DNA of 64,000 nt, from positions 1,933 to 65,932 of the forward strand of contig CAITUP010000098.1 of the NCBI GenBank assembly GCA_903895595.1, in the 5' to 3' direction. A program made the translations under genes and the position numbers. Positions 1,683-59,054 of this stretch are shown here, piece after piece. A model generated the notes under the pieces. That model worked only from the letters and a program-made list of their open reading frames with translations. It was not told the origin of the DNA and did not search any database. Positions within the stretch are counted from its first letter, which is position 1. Each line of letters begins with the position of its first letter. The stretch comes from an uncultured Acetobacteraceae bacterium (GTDB lineage Bacteria > Pseudomonadota > Alphaproteobacteria > Acetobacterales > Acetobacteraceae).

Positions 1683-3100
1683 GGCGTGCCGCCGCCGGAT
1701 TGGCGGGTCTAACCGCGATCCGGCTGATCATTGCCGCGTATCTGCCGCTGACGCCGGACGAGGCCTACTACTGGACTTGGTCGCGCGCCTTGGCGCCCGG
1801 CTACGTCGATCATCCGCCGATGGTGGCGCTGTGGATCAAAGCTGGCACGCTGCTGTTGGGGGAAACCCCGCTGGGCGTGCGCCTGCTGGGACCGCTGGCG
1901 GTGGCGCTCGGGACGTGGCTGCTGGCAGATTGCGCCGAACGTCTTTTCTCCGGCCGGCGAGCCGGTCTGACGGCCGGGCTGTTGTGGAATGCCACGCTGA
2001 TCGTCGGCGCCGGGTCGATGGTCATGACGCCGGATGCACCGTTGCTGCTGTTCTGGTGCGGGACGCTCTGGGCGATGGTTCGGCTTGTCGCGGGCGGTTC
2101 CGGTTGGTGGTGGCTGGTCGCGGGAGCCTGCGCGGGCGCGGCGTCGGCCAGCAAATACACGGCGGCGTTCCTGTGGATTGGGATCTGGCTTTGGGTGTTG
2201 GCTGTGCCGTCCGTCCGGGTTTGGCTGCGCCGGCCGGCGCCCTGGATCGGGGCGGGACTGGGCGCTGCGATCTTTCTGCCGGTACTGCTGTGGAACGCCG
2301 ATCATGGTTGGGCCAGCTTCCTGAAGCAGGGGGGCCGTGTCGCCGAGTGGCAACCCGCACGCGCCATGGGGTTCCTGGGGGAGCTGATCGGCGGGCAGAT
2401 CGGGCTGGCGACGCCGGGCGTGTTCGTGCTGTGCGTTGTGGGGCTGGCGGCGGCAGGGAAGGCACGGCGCGAGGAACATTGTGGCTTGCTCCTGGCACTG
2501 ACAATGCCTGCTGTTCTGGTCTTCCTGCAGCACGCCTTGGGAGATCGGGTGCAGGGGAATTGGCCAGCGATTATCTATCCGGCCGCCATTGTTGCCGCCG
2601 CCGGATTGGCACGACAGCGCTGGGTCCCGCCGGCCGTGGCGCTGGGCTTCGCGATGACCGCCATTGTGCTGCTGCACGCCACGACCGGGTTTCTGCCGCT
2701 GCCGCCGAAATCCGACCCGGCCGCACGGCAGCTGGCCGGCTGGGACAAGGTGGCACTCTCCGCCGAAACCCTGCGCCTGCGCGAACACGCCGCCTACATC
2801 GTCGCCGAGGAATACGCGCTGATCGCCGAACTCGCCTGGAACGCCCCCGCCGGCGCGCCGGTCGTCGGAATCGAAGCCCGTTTGACCCCAATGGACCTGC
2901 CTGCGTTCGACATGGCCGGACGGACCGGGATCCTGGTGCGCGCCGAACATCGCGGCGAGGAAATCGACCCCGCCACCTGGTCCTCTGCCCTTCCGCTGGG
3001 CTTCATCGAACGCGGCAACCAGGAGCGGTCCAGGGTTTGGCTGGTCACTGGACGCACGGTGGGAAAAGCGCTGCCGGCACGTGTTGCGGCGGGCCGATAG
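1679..3100 (+). CDS. ArnT/PMT-like lipid-linked glycosyltransferase (GT39/GT83)
   Basis: DEAYYWTWSRALAPGYVDHPP, TPDAPLL, SKYTA, LWNADHGWASF motifs; polytopic membrane protein; TTG start overlapping upstream TGA (alternative start 1667). Confidence 0.88.
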   Translation: MRRAAAGLAGLTAIRLIIAAYLPLTPDEAYYWTWSRALAPGYVDHPPMVALWIKAGTLLLGETPLGVRLLGPLAVALGTWLLADCAERLFSGRRAGLTAGLLWNATLIVGAGSMVMTPDAPLLLFWCGTLWAMVRLVAGGSGWWWLVAGACAGAASASKYTAAFLWIGIWLWVLAVPSVRVWLRRPAPWIGAGLGAAIFLPVLLWNADHGWASFLKQGGRVAEWQPARAMGFLGELIGGQIGLATPGVFVLCVVGLAAAGKARREEHCGLLLALTMPAVLVFLQHALGDRVQGNWPAIIYPAAIVAAAGLARQRWVPPAVALGFAMTAIVLLHATTGFLPLPPKSDPAARQLAGWDKVALSAETLRLREHAAYIVAEEYALIAELAWNAPAGAPVVGIEARLTPMDLPAFDMAGRTGILVRAEHRGEEIDPATWSSALPLGFIERGNQERSRVWLVTGRTVGKALPARVAAGR

Positions 3101-3142
3101 ATCGGTCTACGCTCCCCGGTAATAAAAGGGAGTGACGAAACA

Positions 3143-4453
3143 ATGTCCACCGCCTTGCTGAACGACAAAGCCTTGGAAGCCGCGACGATGCGCCGGGTGT
3201 CCTGGCGTCTCATGCCGTTTCTGATCCTGGCCTATCTGCTTTGCTACATCGACCGCGTGAACGTCGGGTTCGCGTCGTTGCAGATGAACAAGGCCGTCGG
3301 CATCGACCCGAAGACCTACGGTCTCGGCGCCGGGATCTTCTTCATCGGCTACTTCATTCTGGAGGTGCCCAGCAATCTGGGGCTGGAGCGATTCGGCGCG
3401 CGCAAGTGGATTGCGCGGATCATGCTGACCTGGGGGATTGTGTCGGGCGCTTTCGCGCTGATCGGCGGCCCGACCTCATTCCTGGTGTTGCGCTTTCTGC
3501 TGGGTGCGGCGGAGGCTGGGTTTTTCCCCGGCGTTATCCTTTACCTGACCTATTGGTTCCCGGCGGTCTACCGAGCGAAGATCGTGGGCATATTTATGGT
3601 CGCGATTCCGGTGGCGGGATTGATTGGGTCGCCCATTTCCGGCGCCATTCTGGGGATGGACGGTGTTTGGGGCCTCGGTGGGTGGCAGTGGATTTTCATC
3701 CTCGAAGCTATCCCGACGCTGCTGTTGGGCGTGGCATCGTTCTACTGGCTGACGGATCGTCCCGAACACGCGCCGTGGCTGCCGAAGGAGCAGCAGGCAT
3801 GGCTGATCGCGCGCCTCGCCGCCGAGGGTCGCCGTCAGACCAAGGTGCCGCATCAGTCGGTCTGGAAGACGATGACCAACAAATACGTGCTGATCATGGC
3901 GCTGGTTTACGCCGGTGCGGCGGGTGCCTCGACATCGCTGGCGCTGTTCATGCCGCAACTGGTGAAATCGTTCGGTCTGACGAACTTCGAGACGGGATGC
4001 GTGAACTCCATTCCCTTCGGAATCGCGGCGGTGTGGATGATTTTGTGGGGCCGCAGTTCGGATAAAACCGGCGAGCGGGTGTGGCACAACGCGCTGCCGC
4101 TGGCCTGGATGGTCGTGGCGATGGTGGGGTTGTTCTTCTTCATCAAGAATCTCTACGTCGTGATTCCGCTGATGACGCTGATCGCCGCCGGCACCTACGC
4201 GAGCAAGGGCCCATTCTGGGCGCTGTCGTCGGAGTGGTTGGGGGCCGGCACCGCCGCCGCCGGTCTGGCGCAGATCAACGCGCTGGGGAACCTGTCGGGG
4301 TTCTTCTTCAACTACATGATCGGCTGGATTCAGGCGGAAACCGGCAGCTTCCCCTTGTCCATCATGCCGATCGCGATCGTCGCCGCCATCGGCACGATCA
4401 GCGTTCTGACCGTTGGGCGGCACCAGCCGCGCACGGTCGCGGTGCCTACATGA
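3143..4453 (+). CDS. MFS transporter, anion:cation symporter (tartrate/phthalate-permease-like)
   Basis: YIDRVNVGFA, EVPSN, WIARIM, RFLLGAAEAGFFPG, GWQWIFILE motifs; about 12 TM segments. Confidence 0.92.
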   Translation: MSTALLNDKALEAATMRRVSWRLMPFLILAYLLCYIDRVNVGFASLQMNKAVGIDPKTYGLGAGIFFIGYFILEVPSNLGLERFGARKWIARIMLTWGIVSGAFALIGGPTSFLVLRFLLGAAEAGFFPGVILYLTYWFPAVYRAKIVGIFMVAIPVAGLIGSPISGAILGMDGVWGLGGWQWIFILEAIPTLLLGVASFYWLTDRPEHAPWLPKEQQAWLIARLAAEGRRQTKVPHQSVWKTMTNKYVLIMALVYAGAAGASTSLALFMPQLVKSFGLTNFETGCVNSIPFGIAAVWMILWGRSSDKTGERVWHNALPLAWMVVAMVGLFFFIKNLYVVIPLMTLIAAGTYASKGPFWALSSEWLGAGTAAAGLAQINALGNLSGFFFNYMIGWIQAETGSFPLSIMPIAIVAAIGTISVLTVGRHQPRTVAVPT

Positions 4454-4492: not shown

Positions 4493-5359
4493 TCAGCCAT
4501 CTGTTCGCGCCGCCAAACGGTACCGCCGTACCAGCATGATCGCACCGAACGCGATCGCCGCGCCGCCCCATAGATCCACGAAATGATGCCCACCGATCGC
4601 GGGCGTTGCCGCGATCACCATCAGGTTGATCGCGATTGTCAGAGGAAACAGGATCGGAATGCCTCGGCTCGCATAGGCATACAAAATCGCCAGCGCGGTA
4701 TGGAACGACGGAAACTGCACGACACCCTGGAGTTGCCAAAGATCGATCGCGTCGAACGTTCCGTCGCGCAATCCGGTAAAGACATTCACGTAGTCCCGGA
4801 CAGGTTCGACTTTGAAATGGTAAAACGCGCCGCCCGTGGGCCAGGGGCCGGAAAAAAGAACGCAGCCCATCCCCATCAGCGCGAACAGCCATACCAGCTC
4901 GTGGCTGCGCCCGGTTTGCCCCCGAAAATTCAACACCAGCAGCAGGACAACGATTTGAATCGTCATGCTGATGTAGAAAATGCCCAAGACAATGTTCACG
5001 ACCGGATGCACATCCAGCCAGCGGTGCATCGCCGGCCAGTCCAACCCCGTCGCGCGATCCACCGCCACCAGATATTCGTCCAGCAGCGGACGGTTCAGCG
5101 TCACCATCAGATAGCTCAGAATGCCCGCGCCGGTCGTAAAGGCGATCAGTTCCGCCGTCGATCGTGTCAGCGAGGCGATACGGGCGTCCCGCCGCACGGT
5201 GCCGTAGAACCAGGCGAGCAACGCCGCGACAGCGCCTGCCAGGGCCGGCGCCCATAATGACGAAGCGACCAGCGTCAGCCGCGAGGCCGGCAGCCATACC
5301 GCATCGGTTAATACCACTCCGGCAATCAGCAGCCAAAGCGGTTTCGTCGTTTCCGGCAT
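4493..5359 (-). CDS. PAP2-superfamily membrane phosphatase/phosphotransferase
   Basis: FPSFHTA and GGHHFVDL motifs; multiple TM helices. Confidence 0.8.
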   Translation of the reverse strand: MPETTKPLWLLIAGVVLTDAVWLPASRLTLVASSLWAPALAGAVAALLAWFYGTVRRDARIASLTRSTAELIAFTTGAGILSYLMVTLNRPLLDEYLVAVDRATGLDWPAMHRWLDVHPVVNIVLGIFYISMTIQIVVLLLVLNFRGQTGRSHELVWLFALMGMGCVLFSGPWPTGGAFYHFKVEPVRDYVNVFTGLRDGTFDAIDLWQLQGVVQFPSFHTALAILYAYASRGIPILFPLTIAINLMVIAATPAIGGHHFVDLWGGAAIAFGAIMLVRRYRLAARTDG

Positions 5360-19255: not shown

Positions 19256-19509
19256 CTCCCTGCGTTGATCGCTTTCGGATTACAGGAATTTCCGGGGCGG
19301 AGGATGACAGTTCGGTTGCGGCGTCACGACCTGACGTCGGCCGACATCTCAGGCGCCAAGCAGGTCCGTCCGATCCAATGCCGATGGACGGGGATCGGGA
19401 AGGATGAAATCGGATTCCTCCCTCCGTATTCTGGTTCGTCTTCGTAGTAATACCAAGTGCCCTAACCATTGACCAGCAGTTCTCATTATGGCGGTCGTCA
19501 CCTCTTCAT

Positions 19510-19625
19510 CGTCATGGTCGGGCTTGACCCGACCAACTCTGGCGATTTGAGGCGCGTTGAAATTGCGAGTTTTTTTGGCGGTACCCCATTGGCCTGAGTT
19601 GGTCGGGTCAAGCCCGACCATGACG
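19510..19625. repeat. REP doublet (REPIN-like), perfect 30-bp inverted arms
   Basis: CGTCATGGTCGGGCTTGACCCGACCAACTC (19510-19539) is the exact reverse complement of 19596-19625. Confidence 0.9.
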
Positions 19626-19689
19626 GGTATGCGGAACAAAATGGCAAAATGAAAACTGCCGACCATTGACACACCGTCGCATGGAAAGT

Positions 19690-28676: not shown

Positions 28677-28687
28677 CCACACCCCCC

Positions 28688-28761
28688 CGTCATGGTCGGA
28701 CTTGACCCGACCACCTCAGGCCAATGGGAAAACGATGGTCGGGTTAAACCCGACCATGACG
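28688..28761. repeat. REP doublet
   Basis: CGTCATGGTCGGACTTGACCCGACCACCTC (28688-28717) and inverted GATGGTCGGGTTAAACCCGACCATGACG (28734-28761). Confidence 0.88.
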
Positions 28762-28788
28762 GGTCCGAGGCGGCGGTGGGGCGGTCCA

Positions 28789-30425: not shown

Positions 30426-30512
30426 GCGGGCGGGGTCCGTTGGGGTGGGGGCGCTTTATCGGGGATTCCGAGGTTGGGTTCAATGTCGGGGTTGGGGGGC
30501 GCCTGACACATC

Positions 30513-30542
30513 CGTCATGTTCGGGCTTGACCCGAACACCTC
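30513..30542 (+). repeat. single REP arm (left boundary of DGR cassette)
   Basis: CGTCATGTTCGGGCTTGACCCGAACACCTC matches the family consensus, with compensatory changes in its internal hairpin. Confidence 0.82.
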
Positions 30543-30613: not shown

Positions 30614-32718
30614 ATGAAGGGCTTCATCTCCTACGCGCATGCCGACCAAGCGATGTTTCAGGCGTTTCACACGCATCTGAAAGGGATCGAGCGCGTGCTG
30701 GACGTTCGGTTCTGGGCCGATACCGGCATTGGCGGCGGCGCGCATTGGAACGACGAAATAGCAAAGGCCATCGCCGAGGCGGATATTTTCGTGCTGCTGC
30801 TCAGCCCCGATTGGCTGGCCAGCGAATACATCGAAAAGTACGAGGAACCGGCGATCCGGGCACGATACAATCCGAAGACGGGGCTGATCTGTCCGGTGAT
30901 TTTACGCCGCTGCGACTGGACGGACATCGTGCCGGATTTGCAGGGCATCCCGACGCATGGCCGCAAGGTTGTGCCGATCGACGATTGGCGCCCGAAGGAA
31001 CACGGCTACGATGCGGCCCGCGCGGAGATCAAGGCGGAAATCCGGGCACGGTTCAACCTGTCCTCCCGCCCGGCGGAATGGCGCCAGCGGCTGGATGGGG
31101 GCCGCAGAAGCAGCCGGCGATTGTCTGGGTTCAGGAGAACGACCAGCTGGTGCCGGCGGCCGAAGGAGCGGAGGCCGACGACGCCGTCGCCGCGGATGCG
31201 TCCACCCAACGGTCGCAGGGTGTGGTTCGGAACAAGGCGGACACGCTTGCGCGGCTGGCGAACCAGTTAGGCAATCGCCTCGACTCCGACTGGACGGGGA
31301 TCGCGGCGGCGGCTCGGGAATTCGCCGATGAAATGGCGAAACCGACCAAGATGTTGGCGGCGGAGATAGACCCGCTCTGGCACATGTTTCTGCGCTTGTC
31401 GTTATTCCTGGCGATGGATGAGCGTGCGATGAACCGTAGGAATGGGGAGACCGCCCCTTTACCAGCGCCGTTGCATCGCGCCCTGAGCGATCTGGTCGGT
31501 TCGGCTGCGCCCTGGCTGCGCCGCTTCCCCACCGCGCGCGGGATGGACGATCAGCGCCGCGCATCGGGGGCGGACCGCGCAGATATGACCGAAACGATGG
31601 GGTTGGCCGAGGCGCTGATCGCGGCTGCACGGGACGAGCCGTTGATACCGTCATCGGCCGCGAAACGCCTGTCCGACAGTGTGAAAATGGGACAGGATCC
31701 TTCCGTTCCCGGCGACAAGGCGGCAGCAGAGTCCGAAAATGCAATTTATAATCTGTTCGTTAAAATGGGCAGCACAGCGGCGGGTGCGATGCTTGGCGAC
31801 CTGCGCTTCGGATCGGAGGCCGATCGTGCCCTACATGGCCATATCAAGCACGTTTTAAGGGCAATCGAGGATCATCCGCGGATCGGCGCCTATCTCAAAG
31901 CGCGTTTCCCCGACGATTTGCGGCATGCGTTCGAGCAGTTGATGCGGGAGGCTAAGGAATCGCCAGGCGCGTTCGAAATTCCGCCGGAACGGGAAGAAGG
32001 AAGCGGCCCGTCGGTCGCGGGACCGGACATGGTGCGTATCCCCGCGGGCAAATTCATGATGGGGGTTCCGCAAGAGGAAAGCGATGGACCGGAAGGTTGG
32101 GGCGCGAGCGACGACGATTCGCGCCCGGTGCATGAAGTGACGTTCGCCCGGCCATTCCTGCTCGGCAAATACCCCGTCACCGTAGGAGAATACGCCGCAT
32201 TCGCAGGGGATACCGGGCGGACGCCGGAACCGCCGGCATTTCCGCAGACGGATCGGCACCCGGCGGTGAACGTGTCGTTCGCCGATGCTGTGGCCTATAC
32301 CGAATGGCTGTCGGAGCGGACAGGCCTGCGCTACCGGCTGCCGAGCGAGGCGGAATGGGAATATGCGTGCCGGGCAGGGACGACGACGGCGCGGTGGTGG
32401 GGCGATGGGTTCGATCCCTCCAAAGCGAACAAAAACGATCAGGGTACGACGGCGGTCGACCATTACGATCCGAACCCATGGGGCCTGCACGACACGATCG
32501 GCAACGTGTTCGAATGGGTCGCCGATCCCATGCACGACAACTATGTCGATGCTCCCTCCGACGGTTCGGTGTGGACAACCGGAGGTAGCGATGACAGCCG
32601 CGTTGTCCGTGGCGGTTCCTGGAGCAGCAGCGTCGGGAACCACCGCTCCGGCGTCCGCGGCTGGCTCAACCTCAGTGCCCGTCCGTGGGTTGGGTTCCGT
32701 CTCGCCAGAACGCTGTAG
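30614..32718 (+). pseudogene. TIR domain + unknown helical region + FGE-sulfatase/CLec domain fusion (DGR target), split by a 1-nt frameshift near 31097-31101
   Basis: frame 1 from ATG 30614: GFISYAHAD...FWAD..I.GG..W..EI..AI.EADIFVLLLSPDWLASEYI (TIR_2); after the G5 run the protein continues in the 30403..32718 frame to MVRIPAGKFMMG...RLPSEAEWEYACRAG...NPWGLHD..GNVFEW...RVVRGGSW...GFRLAR. Confidence 0.85.
32595..32708 (+). repeat. DGR variable region (VR)
   Basis: 114-bp gap-free match to 32916-33029; encodes SRVVRGGSWSSSVGNHRSGVRGWLNLSARPWVGFRLA at the protein C-terminus. Confidence 0.95.
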
Positions 32719-32741
32719 TCTCTTTAATCTTAGACTCTTTA

Positions 32742-32774
32742 CCTCTTTAGAGAGGGGTCCGGGGCATAGCCCCG
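32742..32774 (+). promoter_or_regulatory. hairpins downstream of VR/IMH (putative DGR homing cis-elements)
   Basis: CCTCT-TTAG-AGAGG (32742-32755) and CGGGGC-ATA-GCCCCG (32760-32774), 24-56 bp after the target stop codon, preceded by CTCTTTA repeats. Confidence 0.65.
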
Positions 32775-32915
32775 TGGAAATTTTTGGGGTTTTTAAGGCC
32801 TTGCACGACTCGGGCGCATTGGCGCCGTATGCGTCCGCTATCGGGCGTTCGCGCCCTACGATCTTCCCCCGCGCCCGGCCTGTTCGCCGTCCCAAGGGGA
32901 AGCCTGGCCGCCCCC

Positions 32916-33029
32916 CAGCCGCGTTGTCCGTGGCGGTTCCTGGAACAACAACGACAGGAACCACCGCTCCGGCAACCGCAACTGGAACAACGACAGTGCC
33001 CGTCCGTGGGTTGGGTTCCGTCTCGCCAG
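32916..33029 (+). ncRNA. DGR template repeat (TR)
   Basis: non-coding copy of VR with 8 AAC codons in the target frame; 12 A-to-N differences plus one G-to-C; 3' flank diverges from VR (GCCAGCACGCCT versus GCCAGAACGCTG). Confidence 0.93.
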
Positions 33030-33217
33030 CACGCCTCCATGCCAGAGCCGGGTGGGTCAAGGCCCAGTCGGGAGTGCCGAGGTTGCGTTCAGGGGTTGCC
33101 ATGATGACAAGGGGTGCAAGTGGTTTGACCCCGGTGCTCCCGGCGCCTGTCCTGGTTCTTCGATGGACGACAGGCGCCGGAACTTCCCGCGGGCACCCGG
33201 CCGGCCGGGTGTCTGCC

Positions 33218-33307
33218 ATTTGCGTTCATTCGCGGTTTCACTTTGGCAGGCGGAAGAACCGGTTCATTGGTCAGGTCCAAGGATCGGAACCGCGAACGAA
33301 CGCAAAT
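33218..33307. repeat. 22-bp imperfect inverted repeat
   Basis: ATTTGCGTTCATTCGCGGTTTC (33218-33239) versus GGAACCGCGAACGAACGCAAAT (33286-33307), 20/22 complementary. Confidence 0.8.
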
Positions 33308-33390
33308 TTCCGGTGGCCGAGACAAACCGTGGGTAGCGGGCCTGCGCCCGCCATGACGGTATTTCTCTTCGGCCCATGCCAAATTGGCCT

Positions 33391-33420
33391 GAGATGGTCG
33401 GGTCAAACCCGACCATGACG
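33391..33420 (-). repeat. single REP arm (right boundary of DGR cassette)
   Basis: GAGATGGTCGGGTCAAACCCGACCATGACG, inverted relative to 30513-30542; preceded by ATTGGCCT as at 19588-19595. Confidence 0.85.
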
Positions 33421-33434
33421 GGGTGCGAGGACGA

Positions 33435-35036
33435 CTATGCGGCTGCGTCTTCCTTGATCATCACCGCTGCCTTTTCCCCGATCATGATTGTCGGCGCGTT
33501 CGTATTCCCCGTGGTCAGTGTCGGCATGATCGACGCATCCGCCACCCGCAGCCCCGCGATCCCGTGCACCCGCAGCCGGGAATCAACCACGGCCGCCGGT
33601 CCTTCGCCCATCCGGCACGTCCCGACAGGGTGATAAATCGTCGTCCCGTAATCCTTGAAGAACTGCGTCAGCGCCGCGTCCGATGTCACATCCGGACCCG
33701 GCAGCGTCTCCACCACGCTGTGCTTGGCAATCGCCGGAGAGGCGAAAATCTCCCGCGTGAACCGCGTGCCCGCCAGCAGCACCTGAATATCCGCGGGATC
33801 GGACAGATAGTTGGGCGCGATCGCCGCTTTCTCGAACGGGTCGGCGGACCGAGCCATGATGGTGCCACGGCTGTCGGGGCGGACGGGGCAGATGGCGACG
33901 GTCATGCCGTCTTCGCGCTCCAGTTCCCCGAATTTGGCGTTGTCGTAGCTCGCGGGCGTGAACAGCAGTTGCAGATCGGGGCTCGCGAGTTCCGGCCGGG
34001 ACCGGCAGAACACCTGCGCCGTCGTTACCCCGAACGTCAGCGCCCCATTCCCGGCGGTGAAGAATTTCGCGACTTCGCGGACCAGCCGAACGCCGCGCGC
34101 CAGTTTATTGATCGAAATGGAATCGCGCACGCGGTGCGATACGCGGGCCACGTAATGATCCTGCAAGTTCGCCCCGACCCCGCGCAGATCGTGCACGACC
34201 GGCACGCCGATCGATTGCAGATGCGCCGCCGGTCCGACGCCGGAGATTTGCAGCAGATGGGGGGAGTTGATGGCGCCGCCGGACAAAATTACCTCCCGCC
34301 CCGCGCGCAGTTCCTTATCCTGCCCGCGCTGACGGTAGGCGACGCCGACGCAGCGCTTGCCCTCGAACAGCAGTTTGGTCGCGATCGCTTCGGTTTCGAC
34401 CCGCAGGTTGGGGCGGCTCCGCGCCTCTTTCAGGAACGTCTGCGCCGTCGAGCCGCGCCACTTCCCCTTGCGGGTCATTTGGGAATAGCCGACGCCCTCC
34501 TGCTGGCGTCCGTTCAGGTCTTTGCTGAACGGAAACCCGGCCTGCTGCGCGGCCTCGATGAAACGGTGGGTGAGGGGCAGGATCGTGCGGTAGTCCTCGA
34601 CCTTCAACGGCCCGCCGGTGCCGCGATAATCCGTGTCAGCCGCCTGCTTGTAGCTTTCGGATTTGCGGAACAGCGGCAGGACATCGTCGAAGCTCCAGCC
34701 GCGGCAGCCCATTTGTGCCCAGCCGTCGAAATCGGCGGGGTTGCCGCGCACATACAGCATGCCGTTGATCGAGGACGACCCGCCCAGCGTCTTGCCGCGT
34801 GGCCAATGGATTCGGCGGCCACCGCTGCCGTCGGAGGGTTCGGAACTGTAATTCCAGTTCACGACAGGGTGGTACAGCAGTTTCAGGACCCCGGCCGGGA
34901 TGTGGATCCAGGGGTTGGTGTCCGGCGGCCCGGCCTCCAGCAGCACCACCGAGGCGCCGGTCTCCGACAGGCGGGAAGCCACGACGCAGCCGGCCGATCC
35001 GGCGCCCACAACGATGTAATCCGCGTCCATGTGCAT
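33435..35036 (-). CDS. GMC oxidoreductase (choline dehydrogenase-like)
   Basis: VGAGSAG, RGKTLGGSSSINGMLYVRG, VGANLQDH, YHPVGTCRMG, ADASIMP...GNTNAP. Confidence 0.94.
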   Translation of the reverse strand: MHMDADYIVVGAGSAGCVVASRLSETGASVVLLEAGPPDTNPWIHIPAGVLKLLYHPVVNWNYSSEPSDGSGGRRIHWPRGKTLGGSSSINGMLYVRGNPADFDGWAQMGCRGWSFDDVLPLFRKSESYKQAADTDYRGTGGPLKVEDYRTILPLTHRFIEAAQQAGFPFSKDLNGRQQEGVGYSQMTRKGKWRGSTAQTFLKEARSRPNLRVETEAIATKLLFEGKRCVGVAYRQRGQDKELRAGREVILSGGAINSPHLLQISGVGPAAHLQSIGVPVVHDLRGVGANLQDHYVARVSHRVRDSISINKLARGVRLVREVAKFFTAGNGALTFGVTTAQVFCRSRPELASPDLQLLFTPASYDNAKFGELEREDGMTVAICPVRPDSRGTIMARSADPFEKAAIAPNYLSDPADIQVLLAGTRFTREIFASPAIAKHSVVETLPGPDVTSDAALTQFFKDYGTTIYHPVGTCRMGEGPAAVVDSRLRVHGIAGLRVADASIMPTLTTGNTNAPTIMIGEKAAVMIKEDAAA

Positions 35037-43333: not shown

Positions 43334-43702
43334 CTACTCAGCCGCCGCGAGCGGCAAGTCCAATTCCACACGGTCATGCGAGACAACCGGCCGAATCCGC
43401 CCACGTTCACCCCGTTCCAAGCGGATCAACCCATACCCGGCCATGGTCTTCAACGTCCGGGAGAGGTTCGACTTGGCCTTGCCGGTGATCCGCGCCAGTT
43501 CGTCGAGCGACCCCGGCGCCTGTTCGGCGATGGTGCGCAGCAGCGCGCGGTTGCCCGCCGACAGAACTTTGGCGAAGGACTCCGTGGACGTGAACCAGAC
43601 CTTCGGCTCATCCGGCCCGACCTGCAGCTCCCCCCGCGCGATGGCCATGGTGCGGGTTTTCATGTCCTCATAGCTGGCGACGCCGACTTTCAGGGTGGTC
43701 AT
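43334..43702 (-). CDS. winged-HTH putative antitoxin/regulator (HVO_A0114-like)
   Basis: WFTSTESFAKVLS..NR.LL..I.EQ.PGSL.ELA..TG...SNLSRTLKTM..YGL; ATGA overlap with upstream gene. Confidence 0.78.
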   Translation of the reverse strand: MTTLKVGVASYEDMKTRTMAIARGELQVGPDEPKVWFTSTESFAKVLSAGNRALLRTIAEQAPGSLDELARITGKAKSNLSRTLKTMAGYGLIRLERGERGRIRPVVSHDRVELDLPLAAAE

Positions 43703-44055
43703 GGAATGATGCCTCTCTCTCGCAACAGGGCGTCGACGGTTGCCCAAAAATCGCCGAGCAACGTGGCGGCGTCCTGGTAGTCGTATGCTTTCACGGTCCG
43801 CAACCGATGGCGGTGGTCTTGCGGTTCGCCCCGCTTCTGGCGCGCCACCGGGTGGGCGTTGTCGAAGCCGGCCAATCGCTCTCCATCCGGGCCATGGAGG
43901 GTTAACGAATAGTCCAGGCCGTGCGGTTTATCCGGCGTGACCGGCACCCGCGTCACCACGAATCGAACCCAGTGACGACCGGCCGGATCGACGACGAGTG
44001 CCTGTCCGTCGAGGTCCAGTAAGGTGTCTAGGGTTGGGTCGCGGGTTTGCGGCAT
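43699..44055 (-). CDS. DUF6516/TumE-like putative toxin
   Basis: PHGLDYSLTLHGPDGERL.GFDNAH...DHRH motif recognised from memory; coupled to downstream HTH gene. Confidence 0.68.
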   Translation of the reverse strand: MPQTRDPTLDTLLDLDGQALVVDPAGRHWVRFVVTRVPVTPDKPHGLDYSLTLHGPDGERLAGFDNAHPVARQKRGEPQDHRHRLRTVKAYDYQDAATLLGDFWATVDALLRERGIIP

Positions 44056-44062
44056 GCGTAGT

Positions 44063-44091
44063 ATGTTATCATAATGAGATAACTATGGCAA
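44063..44091 (-). promoter_or_regulatory. sigma70 promoter with overlapping palindromic operator; leaderless start
   Basis: minus strand TTGCCA-N17-TAACAT, 7 nt before ATG 44055; GTTATC-N7-GATAAC inverted repeat at 44065-44083. Confidence 0.62.
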
Positions 44092-44214
44092 CCGTGATCG
44101 GGTGATCGATCGTGGAAGCGGAACGGGGGGTATCCGGGGCTGCTGGCTAGACCTGCCAGGATAGCTAACCCGGCATGCTGCTTTTTTGGCAGCGACCGGG
44201 CTGGTGGCAAGTCC

Positions 44215-44342
44215 GCGAGATTCACCACTGAACCACTGAACCACGGAACAGACCGAGCAACCTGGCACGCCTGAGGCCCAACGCCCCGGCTTCTCCGAAG
44301 TTCCGTGGTTCAGTGGTTCAGTGGTTCAGTGGTGAATCTTGC
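44215..44342. repeat. inverted repeat built from tandem 8-mers (CACTGAAC x2 versus GTTCAGTG x3)
   Basis: TTCACCACTGAACCACTGAACCACGGAAC (44221-44249) mirrors GTTCCGTGGTTCAGTGGTTCAGTGGTTCAGTGGTGAA (44300-44336). Confidence 0.82.
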
Positions 44343-44493
44343 GATCGTTCCACGGGCGCACACGGCCACAACCCGCAAACCGAATCGTACCTCCATCCTC
44401 CGCTTGGACAACAGCCTGCCTTTGCCGCTAATGACTTGGCCGATGCGCGGCCGATTCCCGGCGGATCGGCCTTTATCCGAGAATGAGAACCGC

Positions 44494-46035
44494 ATGCCCA
44501 TTTTGAGTTGGTTGACACGGGACGACGACATCCGCGCCGCTCGGCAGGTGCCGTACCGGCTGCTGGATTCGGTGCCCGAACTCTCGGCGGGCGATCCGGC
44601 CTCGGGGAATATGCTGATCCAGGGGGATAATCTGGATGCGCTGAAGGCGTTGCTGCCATTTTACGCGGGGCGGGTGAAGTGCATTTACATCGATCCGCCT
44701 TACAATACGCGGTCGGCGTTCGAGCATTACGACGATAATTTGGAACATACGCAGTGGCTGTCGATGATGTGGCCTCGGTTGGAGTTGCTGCGGGAGTTGT
44801 TGGCGGAGGATGGTTCGATTTGGGTTTCCATCGACGACAATGAGGGGCATTATTTAAAGGTGGTGACGGATGAGGTTTTTGGGCGTCGGAATTTCATAAC
44901 GAATATCGTATGACAAAAATCATATACGTCGAATCAAACAGCGAAATTCATATCCGATACCCATGACCATGTATTTTTGTACGCAAAAGATCAAGACCTA
45001 TTCCGTCTTGGGAAGATTGATCGAACTGAAGACCAAAAGAATTCGTTTAAAAACCCTGATAGCGATATTCGGGGAGATTGGAAGGCGGCAAATCTTTCTG
45101 CTGGGAAATACTATGAGGCCGGTCAGTTTCCTATTACCGGCCCTACCGGAAAGGTTTTCTATCCGCCGAAAAATAGATATTGGCGATGCAATGAGGACAC
45201 GTTCAACCTTTGGCTGGAAGACCGTCGAATTACATTTGGGCGGGACGGTACCGGGCGTCCAATGCTCAAAAAATATCTTCATGAGATGAAGTCTGGGCTG
45301 ACGCCAAACACCTGGTGGTCATATAACGAGGTTGGTGGCAATAAGCAGGCGAGCTCGGATCTGAAGGCGCTATTTCCGGATCAGGAGGTCTTCGGTACGC
45401 CGAAACCGGTAAGTCTAATCGAACGGTTGTTGACATTATCCACCAATCCCGGCGACCTCGCCCTCGACTCCTTCCTCGGCTCCGGCACTACCGCCGCTGT
45501 CGCGCACAAAATGAACCGCCGCTACATCGGCATCGAAATGGGCGATCACGCCGTCACCCATTGCGTCCCACGCCTGAAAAAAGTCATCGACGGCGAGCAA
45601 GGCGGCATCTCCGCCAGCGTCGGCTGGCAGGGCGGCGGCGGGTTCCGCTTCTACCGCCTCGGCCCGCCGGTCTTCGACGAAGATGGCCAGATCCGCGCCG
45701 ATATCGCCTTCCCGGTGCTCGCCGCGCATATCTGGTTCAGCGAAACCGGCACGCCCTGGACCGCGACCGACAACACCCCGTTTATCGGCTTTCACGATGG
45801 GCGGGCTTTCGTGCTGCTGTATAACGGCATCCTCGGCGACAAGCGCCCCGCCGGCGGCAATGTGCTCACCCGAGCCACCCTGGCCATCGTCCGCGCCGCC
45901 ATCGCGGCGGCCGATCCCGCATTCGCCGGCCCCGTCACCATCTACGGCGAACAATCGCGCATCGCTGCTGCCACGCTCGAAAACGACGGCCTGACCTTCA
46001 AGCAGACGCCCTACGACGTCAAAGCAAGGCGCTGA
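44494..46035 (+). pseudogene. mod: type III R-M methyltransferase (Mod) with premature in-frame TGA at 44911-44913
   Basis: IQGDNL.ALK, IYIDPPYNT, WVSIDDNE, TNIV*QK, FGTPKP..LIERLL, LDSFLGSGTT; the same frame continues through the stop to 46035. Confidence 0.88.
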
Positions 46036-46044
46036 GGAACGGTC

Positions 46045-49000
46045 ATGCAGCTCAAACAATACCAGACCGACACGCTGACCATCCTCCGCCGCTATTTGGA
46101 GGAAGCGCGCACCGCCGGACCCGCTCCGGCCTACGACCTGCTGACCGCCGAACCCGAGCAGGAAAAGCGCTTGGGCCGCTACCGGTCGGCGTACAAGGCG
46201 CTGGAGGCGTTGCCGGACACGCCCTATGTCTGCCTGCGCCTGCCGACCGGCGGCGGAAAGACCATCCTCGCGGCACACGCCATCGGTATCGCCCGCGATG
46301 CCTGGATGGAGAAAGACCACCCGCTGGTCCTGTGGCTGGTGCCGTCCAACACCATCCGCCAGCAAACCGCCGAGGCGTTGAAGAACCCGCGCCATCCCTA
46401 TCGCCAGGTGCTGGACGAGCTGTTCGGCGGCCGCGTGCGGGTGTTCGATATTACCGACTTCACCGATATCCGCCCGCACGACATCGCCGACAGCGTGTGC
46501 GTGGTCGTCGGCACCATCCAAACCCTGCGCGTCAACAATACGGAAGGCCGCAAGGTCTACGCCCACAACGAAAACCTGGAGACCCATTTCAGCCGCGTCC
46601 CGCCCAACATGCCGGGGCTGGAACTGCGCGACAACGGCGCGCCGCGGTTCTCTTTCGCCAATCTGCTCCACGTCCATCGCCCGCTGATGATCGTCGATGA
46701 GGCGCACAATGCCGTGACGGGCCTGACGCGGGAGATGCAGACCCGCGTCAATCCCTGCGCGATCGTCGAATTCACCGCGACGCCGCGCATGGACTCCAAC
46801 ATTCTGCACAGCGTCTCGGCGCGGGAACTCAAAGCCGCCGAGATGATCAAGCTGCCGATCGTCCTCGCGGAACACGACTCCTGGCAAACCGCGGTGAACG
46901 GCGCGATCGCCAGCCGGGCGGCCTTGGCGGACGCAGCGAAGGGGGAGAGGGACTACATCCGCCCCATCGTCCTGTTCCAGGCGCAAAACCGCGACCAGGA
47001 GATCACCGTCGAAGTGCTGAAAAAGCATCTGACGGACGTGGAACACATCCCGGAGGACCGGATCGCCATCGCCACCGGCGACCAACGGCAACTGGACGGG
47101 TTGGATTTGTTCGATCCTGCCTGCCGGATCGAATACGTCATCACCATCGCGGCCTTGAAGGAAGGTTGGGATTGCTCCTTCGCCTACGTCTTTTGCTCCG
47201 TCGCCCGCATCCAAAGCGCCACCGACGTGGAACAGCTGCTCGGGCGCGTCCTGCGCATGCCCTACGCGCGGCGACGGACGGCGGAGGCTTTGAACCGCGC
47301 CTACGCCCATGTGTCGGAACCGTCGTTCGGCGCGGCGGCCGCGGCACTGACCGACAAGTTGATCGCGATGGGCTTCGATGAGGACGATGCGCGGGATGCG
47401 ATCGAACCGGCGCAGACCAGTCTGGACGACACGGGATTGTTCGCGCCGCGGCCGGTACCGCTTCCGGTGTTCCGCCATGTCGTGACCGTCAGCTCGGCGG
47501 AGGCGGCAGCCATCGCAACCGCCGTCGCCGCCGAAGGTGTCGCTGTCACACCGCGACCGGATGGCACGGTCGAGATCGCGGTCACCGGTCGGGTGCGGCC
47601 CGAGGTGGAGGAAGCCATCTCCGCCGCGATTCCGGAGCCGGTGCGCCGGCATTTCGCCGAGGCGGTCCGGACGTATCGTGTGGCAATCCAGGACCAGTTG
47701 TCGCCAGCCGAGCAAGGAGAGGAATTCAAGGTTCCCCGCCTGATGGCGGAAATTCAGGGCAATTTGGAATTCGCGGATACCGACCTGTTTTTCGACGAAT
47801 TCCACGACTGGACGCTGGCGTCCTATCCGGCGCGGTTCGATGCCCCCGAATTCACGGCCGACGAAACCGCCCGCAACTGGGAAATCGACCTGAACGGCAG
47901 CCGTATTTCCTATCATTTCGCCAATGAGGACGCTCAATTGGCCCTGGATGTGGATGTCGAGGGTTGGACGCCGCAAAATCTGGTCATCTGGATGGCGCGG
48001 CAATTGCGGCATCACACGATTCATCCGTCCGACCTTCATGCGTGGCTCACGAACTGTATCGCCTATCTGATCGCGGCCCGGAAAATACCGATTGCCGCGT
48101 TGATGCGCATGAAGTTCATCCTGATCCGCAAGCTGCAATCGCGCATCGATGCCGCGCGTTTGGTGGAACGGAATGCTGCGTTCCAGCGGTATCTGTTCGC
48201 GCCCGAAGCGCGGGTGTCGGTTTCGTTCGAGACCGCGTTCGAATTCAAAGATGGGATGTACCGTGATGTAAAAAAACAACCTCCCGGCCGTTGGAAGCCT
48301 CAAAAGCATTTTCTGGGACCGAATCAGGTCCCGGCGTTCGACGGCGCGGAAGGCGGCGAAGAATTTCAGTGCGCCCAGGCGATCGACAGCCTGCCCCAGG
48401 TGCAATTCTGGATCAGGAATGTATCAAGGCATCCGGCCTCGTTCTGGCTCCCCACGGCCACCGACAAATTCTACCCCGATTTCGTGGCGCGGCTGACCGA
48501 CGGGAGGCTATTGATCGTCGAATACAAAGGGGCGTTGCTCGCCGGGCCGGGTGTGGACGATACCAACGAGAAGCGTGCCGTCGGGCGGCTATGGGAAACC
48601 CATAGCGGCGGCCTGTTCATCGTGGTCGAGAAGCAGGTCCGCGTGCTCGGCATGCGTGCTCAGCTTTTGGAAAAACTCGGTAGCTGGCAGCCCCCTTCAA
48701 CCACCCCGCCCATACCCCAAAGCCCGCAAAGCCGCCGCCGGCTCCCGCGCCAAAATCGTCATCAACGACCGAGCGCTCGGGTCCATCAAGGTCCGCCCTT
48801 GTTCCCAGTTCTGCAGCGTCGCCACCGGAATATGGATCGCGTCCGCGAACCGCCGCTGCGACATGCCCAACCGCTTGCGAATAACAGCCGGGGAGATGAT
48901 ATCGCCCTCATCGATGTCCTCATCGGGGTCGTAGCCGTCCTCCCGCATATGCCGCGCGATATCGGCCTCGGTCGTCGCGTCGATCCGAACAAGATCGACG

Positions 49001-49179
49001 GCCGGGGTTTTGGCCATGATCTCCGCCAGTGTCATGCCCGATTTTGCCATAGCCGTAGATCCTTTCCGCTCGCTTTCCACGCACTGATAATCCAAAGGAC
49101 ACAGCCCCGGATCGTGAATACCACGACAAAGGCCCGTCCATCGATCGCTCCGATTGCTCGGATCCGTTCTTCGCCGTAG
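46045..49179 (+). CDS. res: type III R-M restriction subunit (Res; SF2 helicase + PD-(D/E)XK nuclease); C-terminal about 165 aa probably read-through
   Basis: LPTGGGKT, IVDEAHN, FTATP, LKEGWDC, EQLLGRVLR, FYPDFVARLTDGRLLIVEYKG; protein-like sequence ends near 48685. Confidence 0.88.
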   Translation: MQLKQYQTDTLTILRRYLEEARTAGPAPAYDLLTAEPEQEKRLGRYRSAYKALEALPDTPYVCLRLPTGGGKTILAAHAIGIARDAWMEKDHPLVLWLVPSNTIRQQTAEALKNPRHPYRQVLDELFGGRVRVFDITDFTDIRPHDIADSVCVVVGTIQTLRVNNTEGRKVYAHNENLETHFSRVPPNMPGLELRDNGAPRFSFANLLHVHRPLMIVDEAHNAVTGLTREMQTRVNPCAIVEFTATPRMDSNILHSVSARELKAAEMIKLPIVLAEHDSWQTAVNGAIASRAALADAAKGERDYIRPIVLFQAQNRDQEITVEVLKKHLTDVEHIPEDRIAIATGDQRQLDGLDLFDPACRIEYVITIAALKEGWDCSFAYVFCSVARIQSATDVEQLLGRVLRMPYARRRTAEALNRAYAHVSEPSFGAAAAALTDKLIAMGFDEDDARDAIEPAQTSLDDTGLFAPRPVPLPVFRHVVTVSSAEAAAIATAVAAEGVAVTPRPDGTVEIAVTGRVRPEVEEAISAAIPEPVRRHFAEAVRTYRVAIQDQLSPAEQGEEFKVPRLMAEIQGNLEFADTDLFFDEFHDWTLASYPARFDAPEFTADETARNWEIDLNGSRISYHFANEDAQLALDVDVEGWTPQNLVIWMARQLRHHTIHPSDLHAWLTNCIAYLIAARKIPIAALMRMKFILIRKLQSRIDAARLVERNAAFQRYLFAPEARVSVSFETAFEFKDGMYRDVKKQPPGRWKPQKHFLGPNQVPAFDGAEGGEEFQCAQAIDSLPQVQFWIRNVSRHPASFWLPTATDKFYPDFVARLTDGRLLIVEYKGALLAGPGVDDTNEKRAVGRLWETHSGGLFIVVEKQVRVLGMRAQLLEKLGSWQPPSTTPPIPQSPQSRRRLPRQNRHQRPSARVHQGPPLFPVLQRRHRNMDRVREPPLRHAQPLANNSRGDDIALIDVLIGVVAVLPHMPRDIGLGRRVDPNKIDGRGFGHDLRQCHARFCHSRRSFPLAFHALIIQRTQPRIVNTTTKARPSIAPIARIRSSP
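48697..49050 (-). CDS. XRE/HigA-like HTH antitoxin
   Basis: IRKRLGMSQRRFADAIHIPVATLQNWEQGR..D..AR.L. Confidence 0.85.
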   Translation of the reverse strand: MAKSGMTLAEIMAKTPAVDLVRIDATTEADIARHMREDGYDPDEDIDEGDIISPAVIRKRLGMSQRRFADAIHIPVATLQNWEQGRTLMDPSARSLMTILAREPAAALRALGYGRGG

Positions 49180-53467: not shown

Positions 53468-53656
53468 CAGGGGGATCGCATATGGCGGATTTCCGACACT
53501 TTCCGTCATGGTCGGGCCTGACCCGACCATCTCACGCCAATTGGGCACCGTTCGAAAAACCCTGCCTTTTCAATGGTGCGCAAAATCGCAGAAGATGGTC
53601 GGGTCACGCCCGACCATGACGAGCGGGGCCACCAAAGGTCGTATGCGATAGCCCTG
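53468..53656. mobile_element. MITE with CAGGG ends, internal REP doublet and 10-bp target-site duplication
   Basis: TIRs CAGGGGGATCGCATATG / CGTATGCGATAGCCCTG; AATGAAAGCG at 53458-53467 and 53657-53666. Confidence 0.88.
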
Positions 53657-58952: not shown

Positions 58953-59054
58953 CAGGGGGATCGCATATGGCGGATTTCCAACACTTTCCGTCATGGTCGG
59001 GTCAAGCCCGACCATGACGAGCGGGGGCGCCAAAGGTCATATGCGATAGCCCTG
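58953..59054. mobile_element. second, internally collapsed MITE copy with 10-bp target-site duplication
   Basis: TIRs CAGGGGGATCGCATATG / CATATGCGATAGCCCTG; ACATGCGCCG at 58943-58952 and 59055-59064; internal perfect hairpin CGTCATGGTCGGG-TCAAG-CCCGACCATGACG. Confidence 0.9.

Follow-up and report, generated by a model that had tools for sequence, protein, structure and literature searches.

Canonical diversity-generating retroelements (DGRs), such as that of BPP-1 with the order mtd-avd-TR-brt and those of Legionella and Treponema, carry an adenine-specific pair of a template repeat (TR) and a variable region (VR), with the VR at the 3' end of a gene of the C-type-lectin/FGE fold, a GC hairpin after the VR and a non-coding RNA element (Sp) directly downstream of the TR (PMC6182149 for BPP-1). 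A module with these same features was found in a stretch of 64,000 nucleotides from an uncultured Acetobacteraceae bacterium (contig CAITUP010000098.1, positions 1,933 to 65,932; the whole stretch is called the window here), but unlike the canonical DGRs it has no avd and no reverse transcriptase (RT) gene in cis. Remote targets, as well as avd, TR and brt expressed in trans, are already known (PMC5758913). In the remote-target DGRs of Treponema denticola, Trichodesmium and cyanobacteria (PMC5758913) the RT acts on a distant VR, as would be the case here, and the cis signals of the VR suffice; however, those targets share a master TR, whereas the window locus has a dedicated TR and Sp RNA gene. 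The incomplete loci of Thiohalocapsa PB-PSB1 (Doré et al. 2024, PMC10907252) are also diversified with no intact RT, trans activity was considered for them, and their CLec-domain targets are joined to conflict-system effectors including TIR. For the RT-disrupted Thiohalocapsa loci the explanation given was activity in the past or the presence of intact variants in part of the cells, whereas the RT-less form described here persists with one junction across diverged lineages, with TR and VR changing in concert. The DGR literature searched gave no account of an RT-less lineage that is inherited, retains a TR and an RNA handle of its own and is still homing.

The window locus is probably a non-autonomous DGR module, serviced in trans and descended from a canonical target(VR)-hairpin-avd-RT-TR-Sp ancestor. 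The initial annotation had offered two options, a module that borrows RT and Avd from elsewhere or an RT deleted after mutagenesis, and both would appear to hold in succession, with avd-RT deleted and homing then continued. The first option was strengthened by VR differences between near-identical strains and by TR and VR changing in concert in two RT-less lineages, which indicate continued homing, and by a co-abundant avd-RT-TR cassette, which suggests service in trans. The second was borne out by an RT remnant and a deletion junction shared with relatives.

The pair in the window is a 119-nt direct repeat, in which the VR forms the final 40 codons of the target open reading frame (ORF) and the TR copy is non-coding (Table 1). 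The VR and TR differed at 13 positions, all within 32624-32672, and 12 of the 13 fell on TR adenines (binomial P ~5e-8); these 12 occupied codon positions 1 and 2 only. The mutagenic zone of the TR (32944-32995) holds 21 adenines. The ORF that carries the VR at its 3' end encodes an FGE-sulfatase fold, the domain being matched at a Pfam E of 2.4e-51. At the 3' end of the VR a 34-nt invariant stretch is directly followed by a TR/VR difference and then by the GC hairpin, and this GC-rich invariant end with its downstream hairpin is a candidate cis signal of the initiation of mutagenic homing (IMH) type. The hairpin was kept in canonical and RT-less relatives, its stem showing no covariation, and may act in target recognition, in termination of the target gene or in both. 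There is virtually no probability that the locus is not a DGR and that the repeat arose by duplication of a gene fragment that then changed by chance. Only the lack of a cis-encoded RT speaks for this, and the reading is opposed by the adenine-specific pattern, by the avd, RT, TR and Sp of canonical members of the same family and by the match of the Sp to its covariance model.

Between the stop codon of the target (32716-32718) and the TR there were 197 bp, and 400 bp separated the TR from a GMC oxidoreductase gene of the minus strand, which ends at 33435, in agreement with the gaps of about 200 and 400 bp given in the initial annotation. Both gaps were free of an intact RT or Avd, as stated there, but they were not empty: the first contained an RT remnant and the second a structured RNA.

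Comparison of relatives showed that the VR varies where the rest of the locus hardly does. A metagenome contig (L001) shared 99.6% identity with the window over 9 kb, as well as its gene order and VR-TR spacing, and 20 of the 37 differences in 9030 nt were inside 58 nt of the VR. Both loci are RT-less, their TRs were identical and their identity outside the VR was 99.8%. A third relative (L002) had a different VR again, and the VRs of the window, L001 and L002 (the last compared with the window TR) carried 12 adenine-site changes each, jointly hitting all 21 adenines of the mutagenic zone. Absence of VR variation, which together with the lack of any DGR RT in the genome had been named as the sign of a fossil, was therefore contradicted by these near-identical strains. 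Between the window and the more distant RT-less locus L110 the TRs differed at 11 non-adenine sites and each VR followed its own TR at 11/11; the VR/TR mismatches of L110 were on adenines in 10/10 cases. Judged from these sequences, the pattern is the mark of TR-to-VR retrohoming which continued after the deletion, rather than of plain gene conversion, because gene conversion would erase the adenine-site differences too. An exact 24-mer of the TR/VR 3' end had no match in the viral, genome and JGI metagenome collections; the species is therefore outside those collections and no further VR/TR copies were obtainable that way. A hybrid VR/TR single copy and a split target in L003 (5089-5137, 6127-6245), a contig with an N-run scaffold gap, were set aside as probable assembly artefacts.

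Loci of the same family were retrieved with the invariant 20-mer AGYACGCCTCCATGCCAGAG, taken from the downstream part of RNA-derived contigs, which gave 14 real loci in genome contigs, mostly metagenome-assembled genomes (MAGs) of Acetobacteraceae, and 18 real loci in JGI metagenomes. The window locus belongs with them by the Sp-like element directly downstream of its TR, with the AGYACGCCTCCATGCCAGAG core and covarying hairpins. Most loci were canonical with the order target(FGE, VR)-hairpin-avd-RT-TR-Sp (L088, L092, L095, L099, L100 and others). In this alphaproteobacterial family the RT is upstream of the TR (avd-RT-TR-Sp), unlike in BPP-1-type DGRs, where it is downstream (avd-TR-Sp-RT), and the order avd-TR-RT assumed in the initial annotation is replaced by target-avd-RT-TR-Sp.

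The canonical counterpart of the window locus was L092, with TIR, FGE sensor, avd, RT, TR and Sp. The 1546 nt of avd-RT in L092 correspond to 120 nt at the same place in the window, and the box CTTGCNCGACTCGG (32800-32813 in the window) is directly upstream of avd in L092. RT-less loci with sufficient upstream sequence were L094, L098, L102, L110, L113/L121, L118 and L128. One junction was common to at least six loci (the window, L096, L110/L125, L118 and L128), in the order VR stop, hairpin and T-run, box CTTGCNCGACTCGG, about 24 nt, RT 3' remnant, GGAAGCCTGGC and TR. L110 and L118 also gave TIR and FGE hits upstream, and the loci with the shared junction form an RT-less TIR-sensor sub-lineage. 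A single old deletion took out avd and all of the RT but its last codons. This deletion is old and inherited because the junction is shared by loci whose FGE domains are just 62-70% identical to that of the window.

Other members of the family showed further rearrangements. In L118 (TR region 2205-2332) the TR is reduced to its 3' 55 nt, which directly adjoin the RT remnant, and the three VR mismatches in the retained part were all on adenines. In L094 (TR 4989-5116) and L102 (TR 2579-2706) the match to the family started only about 18 nt ahead of the TR and no remnant of an RT was present, and in L094 no VR or target was found within 5 kb upstream; TR-Sp units may thus disperse independently. 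L112 (~39-1007 and Sp) had a truncated RT fused directly to the Sp with the TR missing, a deletion reverse in kind to that of the window. L088 carried a second Sp copy without TR (122 bits), 680 nt downstream of the first (oriented 3091-3261 and 3774-3941), and a small gene between the two copies was GxxExxY-like by eye. In canonical L092 (4992-6386), L088, L089, L095, L099, L100 and L091 the RT frame had no stop before the TR, crossed it and ended about 70-130 nt past the point where the Sp core starts; in these members the template would then encode a low-complexity tail of the RT.

The absence of RT and Avd ORFs from the 64 kb, claimed from the letters alone, held in four tests. Queries with BPP-1 Brt and Avd (tblastn, phmmer) found neither in the window, and hidden Markov models (HMMs) from 77 Brt-like RTs and 72 Avds gave a best E > 2 over its six frames, the Avd HMM reaching 8.3 at best. 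An HMM of the RT core of the family to which the locus belongs gave a best E of 3.5 in six frames of the window. Pfam on the unclear ORFs of the window, most other genes being recognised from translations only, found no RT or Avd and gave RecJ, an MFS transporter, a TumE toxin with a helix-turn-helix (HTH) partner and a type III restriction subunit. With the same Brt-clade HMMs related loci gave 1e-63 to 1e-70 for RT and 1e-11 to 1e-14 for Avd, so the lack of a match in the window is informative. With family RT proteins in tblastn the window was matched by the C-terminal tails only (32876-33160, E 2e-21), and this alignment, starting at 32876, was mostly TR-encoded sequence. An RT remnant had been expected at 33030-33430, downstream of the TR. 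It was rejected there, 33035-33435 having no match by Pfam on ORFs or by RT HMMs and containing the Sp-like RNA; the 3' remnant of the RT, the only part of the RT in the cassette, was found instead upstream of the TR at about 32840-32897. No part of Avd was found in the cassette.

The second gap, rather than being an empty spacer, contains a conserved structured RNA element (33008-33183). The covariance model (R1), built from an alignment of 15 Sp copies, found one copy in the window, and canonical copies scored 146-182 bits. The alignment of 15 copies had 37 pairs, 13 of them with compensatory changes, and 96.2% of cells were paired compared to 42-50% for slid partners. For 28 distinct Sp sequences, in an alignment fitted to the model and so biased towards its structure, 15 of the 37 pairs had compensatory changes and 95.7% of cells were paired compared to 40-50% when slid. 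The observed covariation was reached in 0/500 shuffles. The hairpins at 33048-71 and 33142-78 are well supported by covariation, while long-range pairing of the 3' end of the TR with the Sp hardly varies and is predicted by the model only. The structural claim is based on covariation because the single-sequence fold of TR-Sp gave a z of only -2.2. R1 had no match in BPP-1-type loci (16 of 81 searched) and no Rfam family matched the element. The Sp-like element is most plausibly the counterpart of the Avd-binding handle of BPP-1, a non-coding stretch that follows the TR and is needed there for template-primed cDNA synthesis to be processive (PMC6182149).

RNA-derived contigs from two wetland metatranscriptomes covered 32897-33127 only, that is the TR and about 90 nt downstream of it, and none covered the VR or target. 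They began at 32897-32912. One was 99% identical to the window over 151 nt, and the others showed different AAC-rich TRs joined to the same downstream sequence. A TR transcript, which the initial annotation had proposed to look for, was thus seen as TR-Sp RNA, although in contigs from relatives that give neither strand nor true ends. A sigma-70 scan found no promoter.

A candidate source of Avd and RT was found in four lake metagenomes that contain the window organism (X1-X4), at unitig depths of 14.1, 12.0, 27.2 (window-type strain) and 5.6. Taking the canonical cassette L103 as reference, a 1593-nt unitig spanning avd and RT was recovered at about 80% identity, with depths of 16, 12.2, 26.8 and 6.3-6.7 in X1-X4. 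L089, whose RT is 86% identical to that of L103, was a poorer reference, giving only low-depth unitigs at ≥80%. In X4 the unitig continued from the RT into a second TR, which had its own Sp and depths of 15.7, 14.9 and 23.9; the window VR matched the local TR and not this second one. In the related MAG Umea_bin-06648 canonical L089 and the RT-less orthologue L096 were on different contigs, and in X3 the two loci were found at depths that were low and alike. The depth argument gained nothing from the freshwater runs X5-X8, which were too mixed. Co-abundance and the one MAG with both kinds of locus support, but do not prove, a second canonical cassette in the same genome.

Two other sources of the enzyme were weighed against these data. 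Some cells could keep avd-RT between VR and TR, or the deletion could recur, so that diversification occurs in cis in those cells only, as has been put forward for the disrupted Thiohalocapsa loci DGR 3 and 7. Long reads did reveal intact variants of disrupted loci there (PMC10907252), and the genomic placement of the avd-RT unitig is not possible from these data. However, the unitig from the VR end to the TR (32679-33023) had the full depth of its flanks in all four samples (18.5/14, 10.6/12, 50.3/45 and 5.6/5.5), which makes an intact variant at the window site unlikely. The avd-RT unitig also ran into a different TR in X4, and the identical junction spacing in distant relatives argues for one event; cis service by structural variants is thus considered very unlikely. 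Alternatively, Avd-RT could come from a DGR of this family on a phage or plasmid, and only while that element is present. DGRs are common on phages, avd, TR and brt function from a plasmid (PMC5758913) and the avd-RT unitig has no assigned location, but neither the TR 3' end nor the Sp core had a match in any viral contig, the avd-RT depth equalled the chromosome depth in four samples and matched the window-type strain in X3, and family members were located among chromosomal genes. A transient or mobile RT was accordingly judged quite improbable.

Several points weigh against a module still active and serviced in trans. In the window strain a frameshift divides the target gene. Two of the VRs have one non-adenine change (G32992->C in the window and T32938->G in L001), and the TR of L002 is off its contig. 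In RT-less relatives that have decayed, the mismatches on adenines numbered 18/28 (L098), 11/23 (L102) and 18/36 (L128), which shows that modules of this kind can die. Differences among the VRs of one sample are beyond the resolution of Logan unitigs, and the RNA contigs are from relatives. The RT cassette is tied to the genome by unitig depth in four samples, and an equally abundant organism or mobile element is not excluded. The physical assignment of this cassette to the genome is the weakest link.

The frameshift, the non-adenine mismatch of the window VR and the decayed relatives, together with the lack of RT and Avd in 64 kb, would also fit a fossil, in which the cassette has been dead since the avd-RT deletion and the VR/TR pattern and strain differences are left over from earlier activity. 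Leftover targets after the loss of a DGR are known in Treponema (PMC4891356). This alternative is unlikely, as it is opposed by the junction common to lineages with targets of 62-70% identity, by the VR matching its own TR at all 11 lineage-specific non-adenine sites, by unrelated VRs in nearly identical strains and by the Sp element, which retains its full structure and score.

For a module serviced in trans the following steps are proposed. Through the deletion, sequence that once preceded avd came to lie about 100 nt from the TR, and all the parts required in cis would be left, namely the VR with its invariant 3' end and hairpin, the TR and an Sp-like RNA ending in terminator-like hairpins. 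The TR-Sp RNA would be transcribed on its own, as suggested by RNA-derived contigs that cover only TR-Sp, and would be bound and copied by the Avd-RT of a second canonical family cassette elsewhere in the genome. The adenine-mutagenised cDNA would then replace the VR of the adjacent sensor gene, where its footprint is seen. The role is probably to diversify the face with which a TIR-coupled sensor binds its ligand, within a variable island of the defence type. Non-autonomous retroelements that use the enzyme of a partner include short interspersed elements (SINEs), which use that of long interspersed elements (LINEs), and ORF-less group II introns, which use a maturase in trans. By analogy, the RNA gene here would likewise keep a structured handle for an RT encoded elsewhere; unlike those elements, the window module rewrites one fixed adjacent target and does not copy to new sites.

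The chances are about even that several dedicated template RNA genes depend on a single master avd-RT cassette, with the Sp-like element as a portable handle that lets an RT-less TR-Sp beside its own target use the family Avd-RT, and that the RT-less TIR-sensor lineage is a stable inherited arrangement. DGR surveys anchor on the RT gene and seek TR and VR beside it (PMC8144416, PMC5758913). A TR apart from any RT is invisible to them because they begin at the RT gene and, if TR-Sp units do disperse, such templates and targets would be missed systematically. If RT-less modules are functional, DGR activity and target repertoires would be under-counted, several independent templates could be run by one RT, and the element downstream of the TR would be a defined and testable recognition handle. 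Such a handle would help to work out how templates are chosen and to engineer targeted mutagenesis in which the template cassettes are kept separate. A target that is a sensor partnered with a Thoeris-like TIR in a variable island fits the proposal of DGR-diversified 'antigen sensors' (PMC10907252).

Table 1. Coordinates of the features of the RT-less DGR module and its target in the window.
Feature	Coordinates	Strand	Remarks
TIR-domain ORF	30614..31270	+	TIR_2 domain ~30623-30964, Pfam E 1.9e-14
G5 run	31096..31100	+	One G fewer than L001 (G6); splits the 701-aa TIR-sensor fusion into two ORFs
Sensor ORF (DGR target)	31078..32718	+	Region of ~300 aa without recognised domain; C-terminal FGE-sulfatase (C-type lectin fold) ~32023-32709
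Variable region (VR)	32595..32713	+	Hypervariable part 32617-32674; invariant 3' part 32675-32708
GC hairpin GGGGC-ATA-GCCCC (32761-32773) then T-run, 3' of VR	32754..32794	+	Sequence; alignment with L110, L118, L128 and L092
Box CTTGCACGACTCGG	32800..32813	+	24 nt ahead of RT remnant; left side of avd-RT deletion
RT 3'-end remnant	32840..32897 (about)	+	Matches canonical '...TWRLRHAIFR...RKPGR' region; nucleotide alignment to RT ends of L092, L098, L110 and L096
Conserved leader GGAAGCCTGGCC... and TR	32898..33034	+	TR 32916-33034
Sp-like structured RNA element	33008..33183	+	Begins in TR 3' end; covariance model R1 156 bits, E 6.5e-38
Parts of Sp-like element	33028-33047; 33048-33071; 33099-33107; 33142-33178		Core AGCACGCCTCCATGCCAGAG; covarying hairpin; CCATGATGA motif; terminal hairpin
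Second GC-rich hairpin and T-containing tail, intrinsic-terminator-like	33189..33216	+	
REP-like palindromic element	33383..33423	+	Inverted copy 30512-30540, upstream of TIR gene

The target gene is preceded by a TIR gene and the module is positioned between cysS and the GMC oxidoreductase gene. Close relatives encode TIR and sensor as one 701-aa protein (P0001, 98% identity; P0002, 84%), and the pair is a single fused ORF with G6 in L001 (near 1690-3795) and L002. In the window the TIR ORF beyond about 31100 is out of frame relative to the fused form, and the G5 form is genuine, being present in unitigs of the four lake metagenomes. The split form may still work; it need not be dead because the distant relatives L110, L118 and L092 also carry TIR and sensor as two abutting ORFs. 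Fused and split forms of the pair thus both occur in nature. The TIR domain matched the ThsB TIR-like model of PADLOC (E 6.7e-19; 5.5e-20 for the ORF 30614..31270), but the locus was not a recognisable Thoeris system, as no other PADLOC match was found at the locus and no ThsA-like gene was recognised nearby. The distant TIR-FGE homologues L004 and L005 (31-33% identity) had no TR nearby and hence were uninformative. In L002 a HepT/MNT toxin-antitoxin pair (2204-2850), not found in the window, was located between cysS and the TIR-FGE gene, and the site between cysS and the oxidoreductase gene appears to behave as a variable island.

A REP-like (repetitive extragenic palindromic) sequence, GGTCGGGTCAAGCCCGACC followed by ATGACGG, had at least 10 intergenic copies in the window, often as inverted pairs (19509-19626, 28687-28762, 30512-30540, 33393-33421, 53503-53622 and 58988-59020). 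One pair brackets the TIR-sensor-TR module and the unitig depth of the element was very high in the lake metagenomes. The copy downstream of the Sp is a generic intergenic repeat of the genome, outside the DGR. Finally, a low-GC island (0.57) was found at 43334-49179 of the window, with a TumE-like toxin (43699-44055, minus strand), its HTH partner (43334-47, minus strand) and a type III restriction-modification system in which a split mod (44305-44913 and 44977-46035) is upstream of res (46045-49179).

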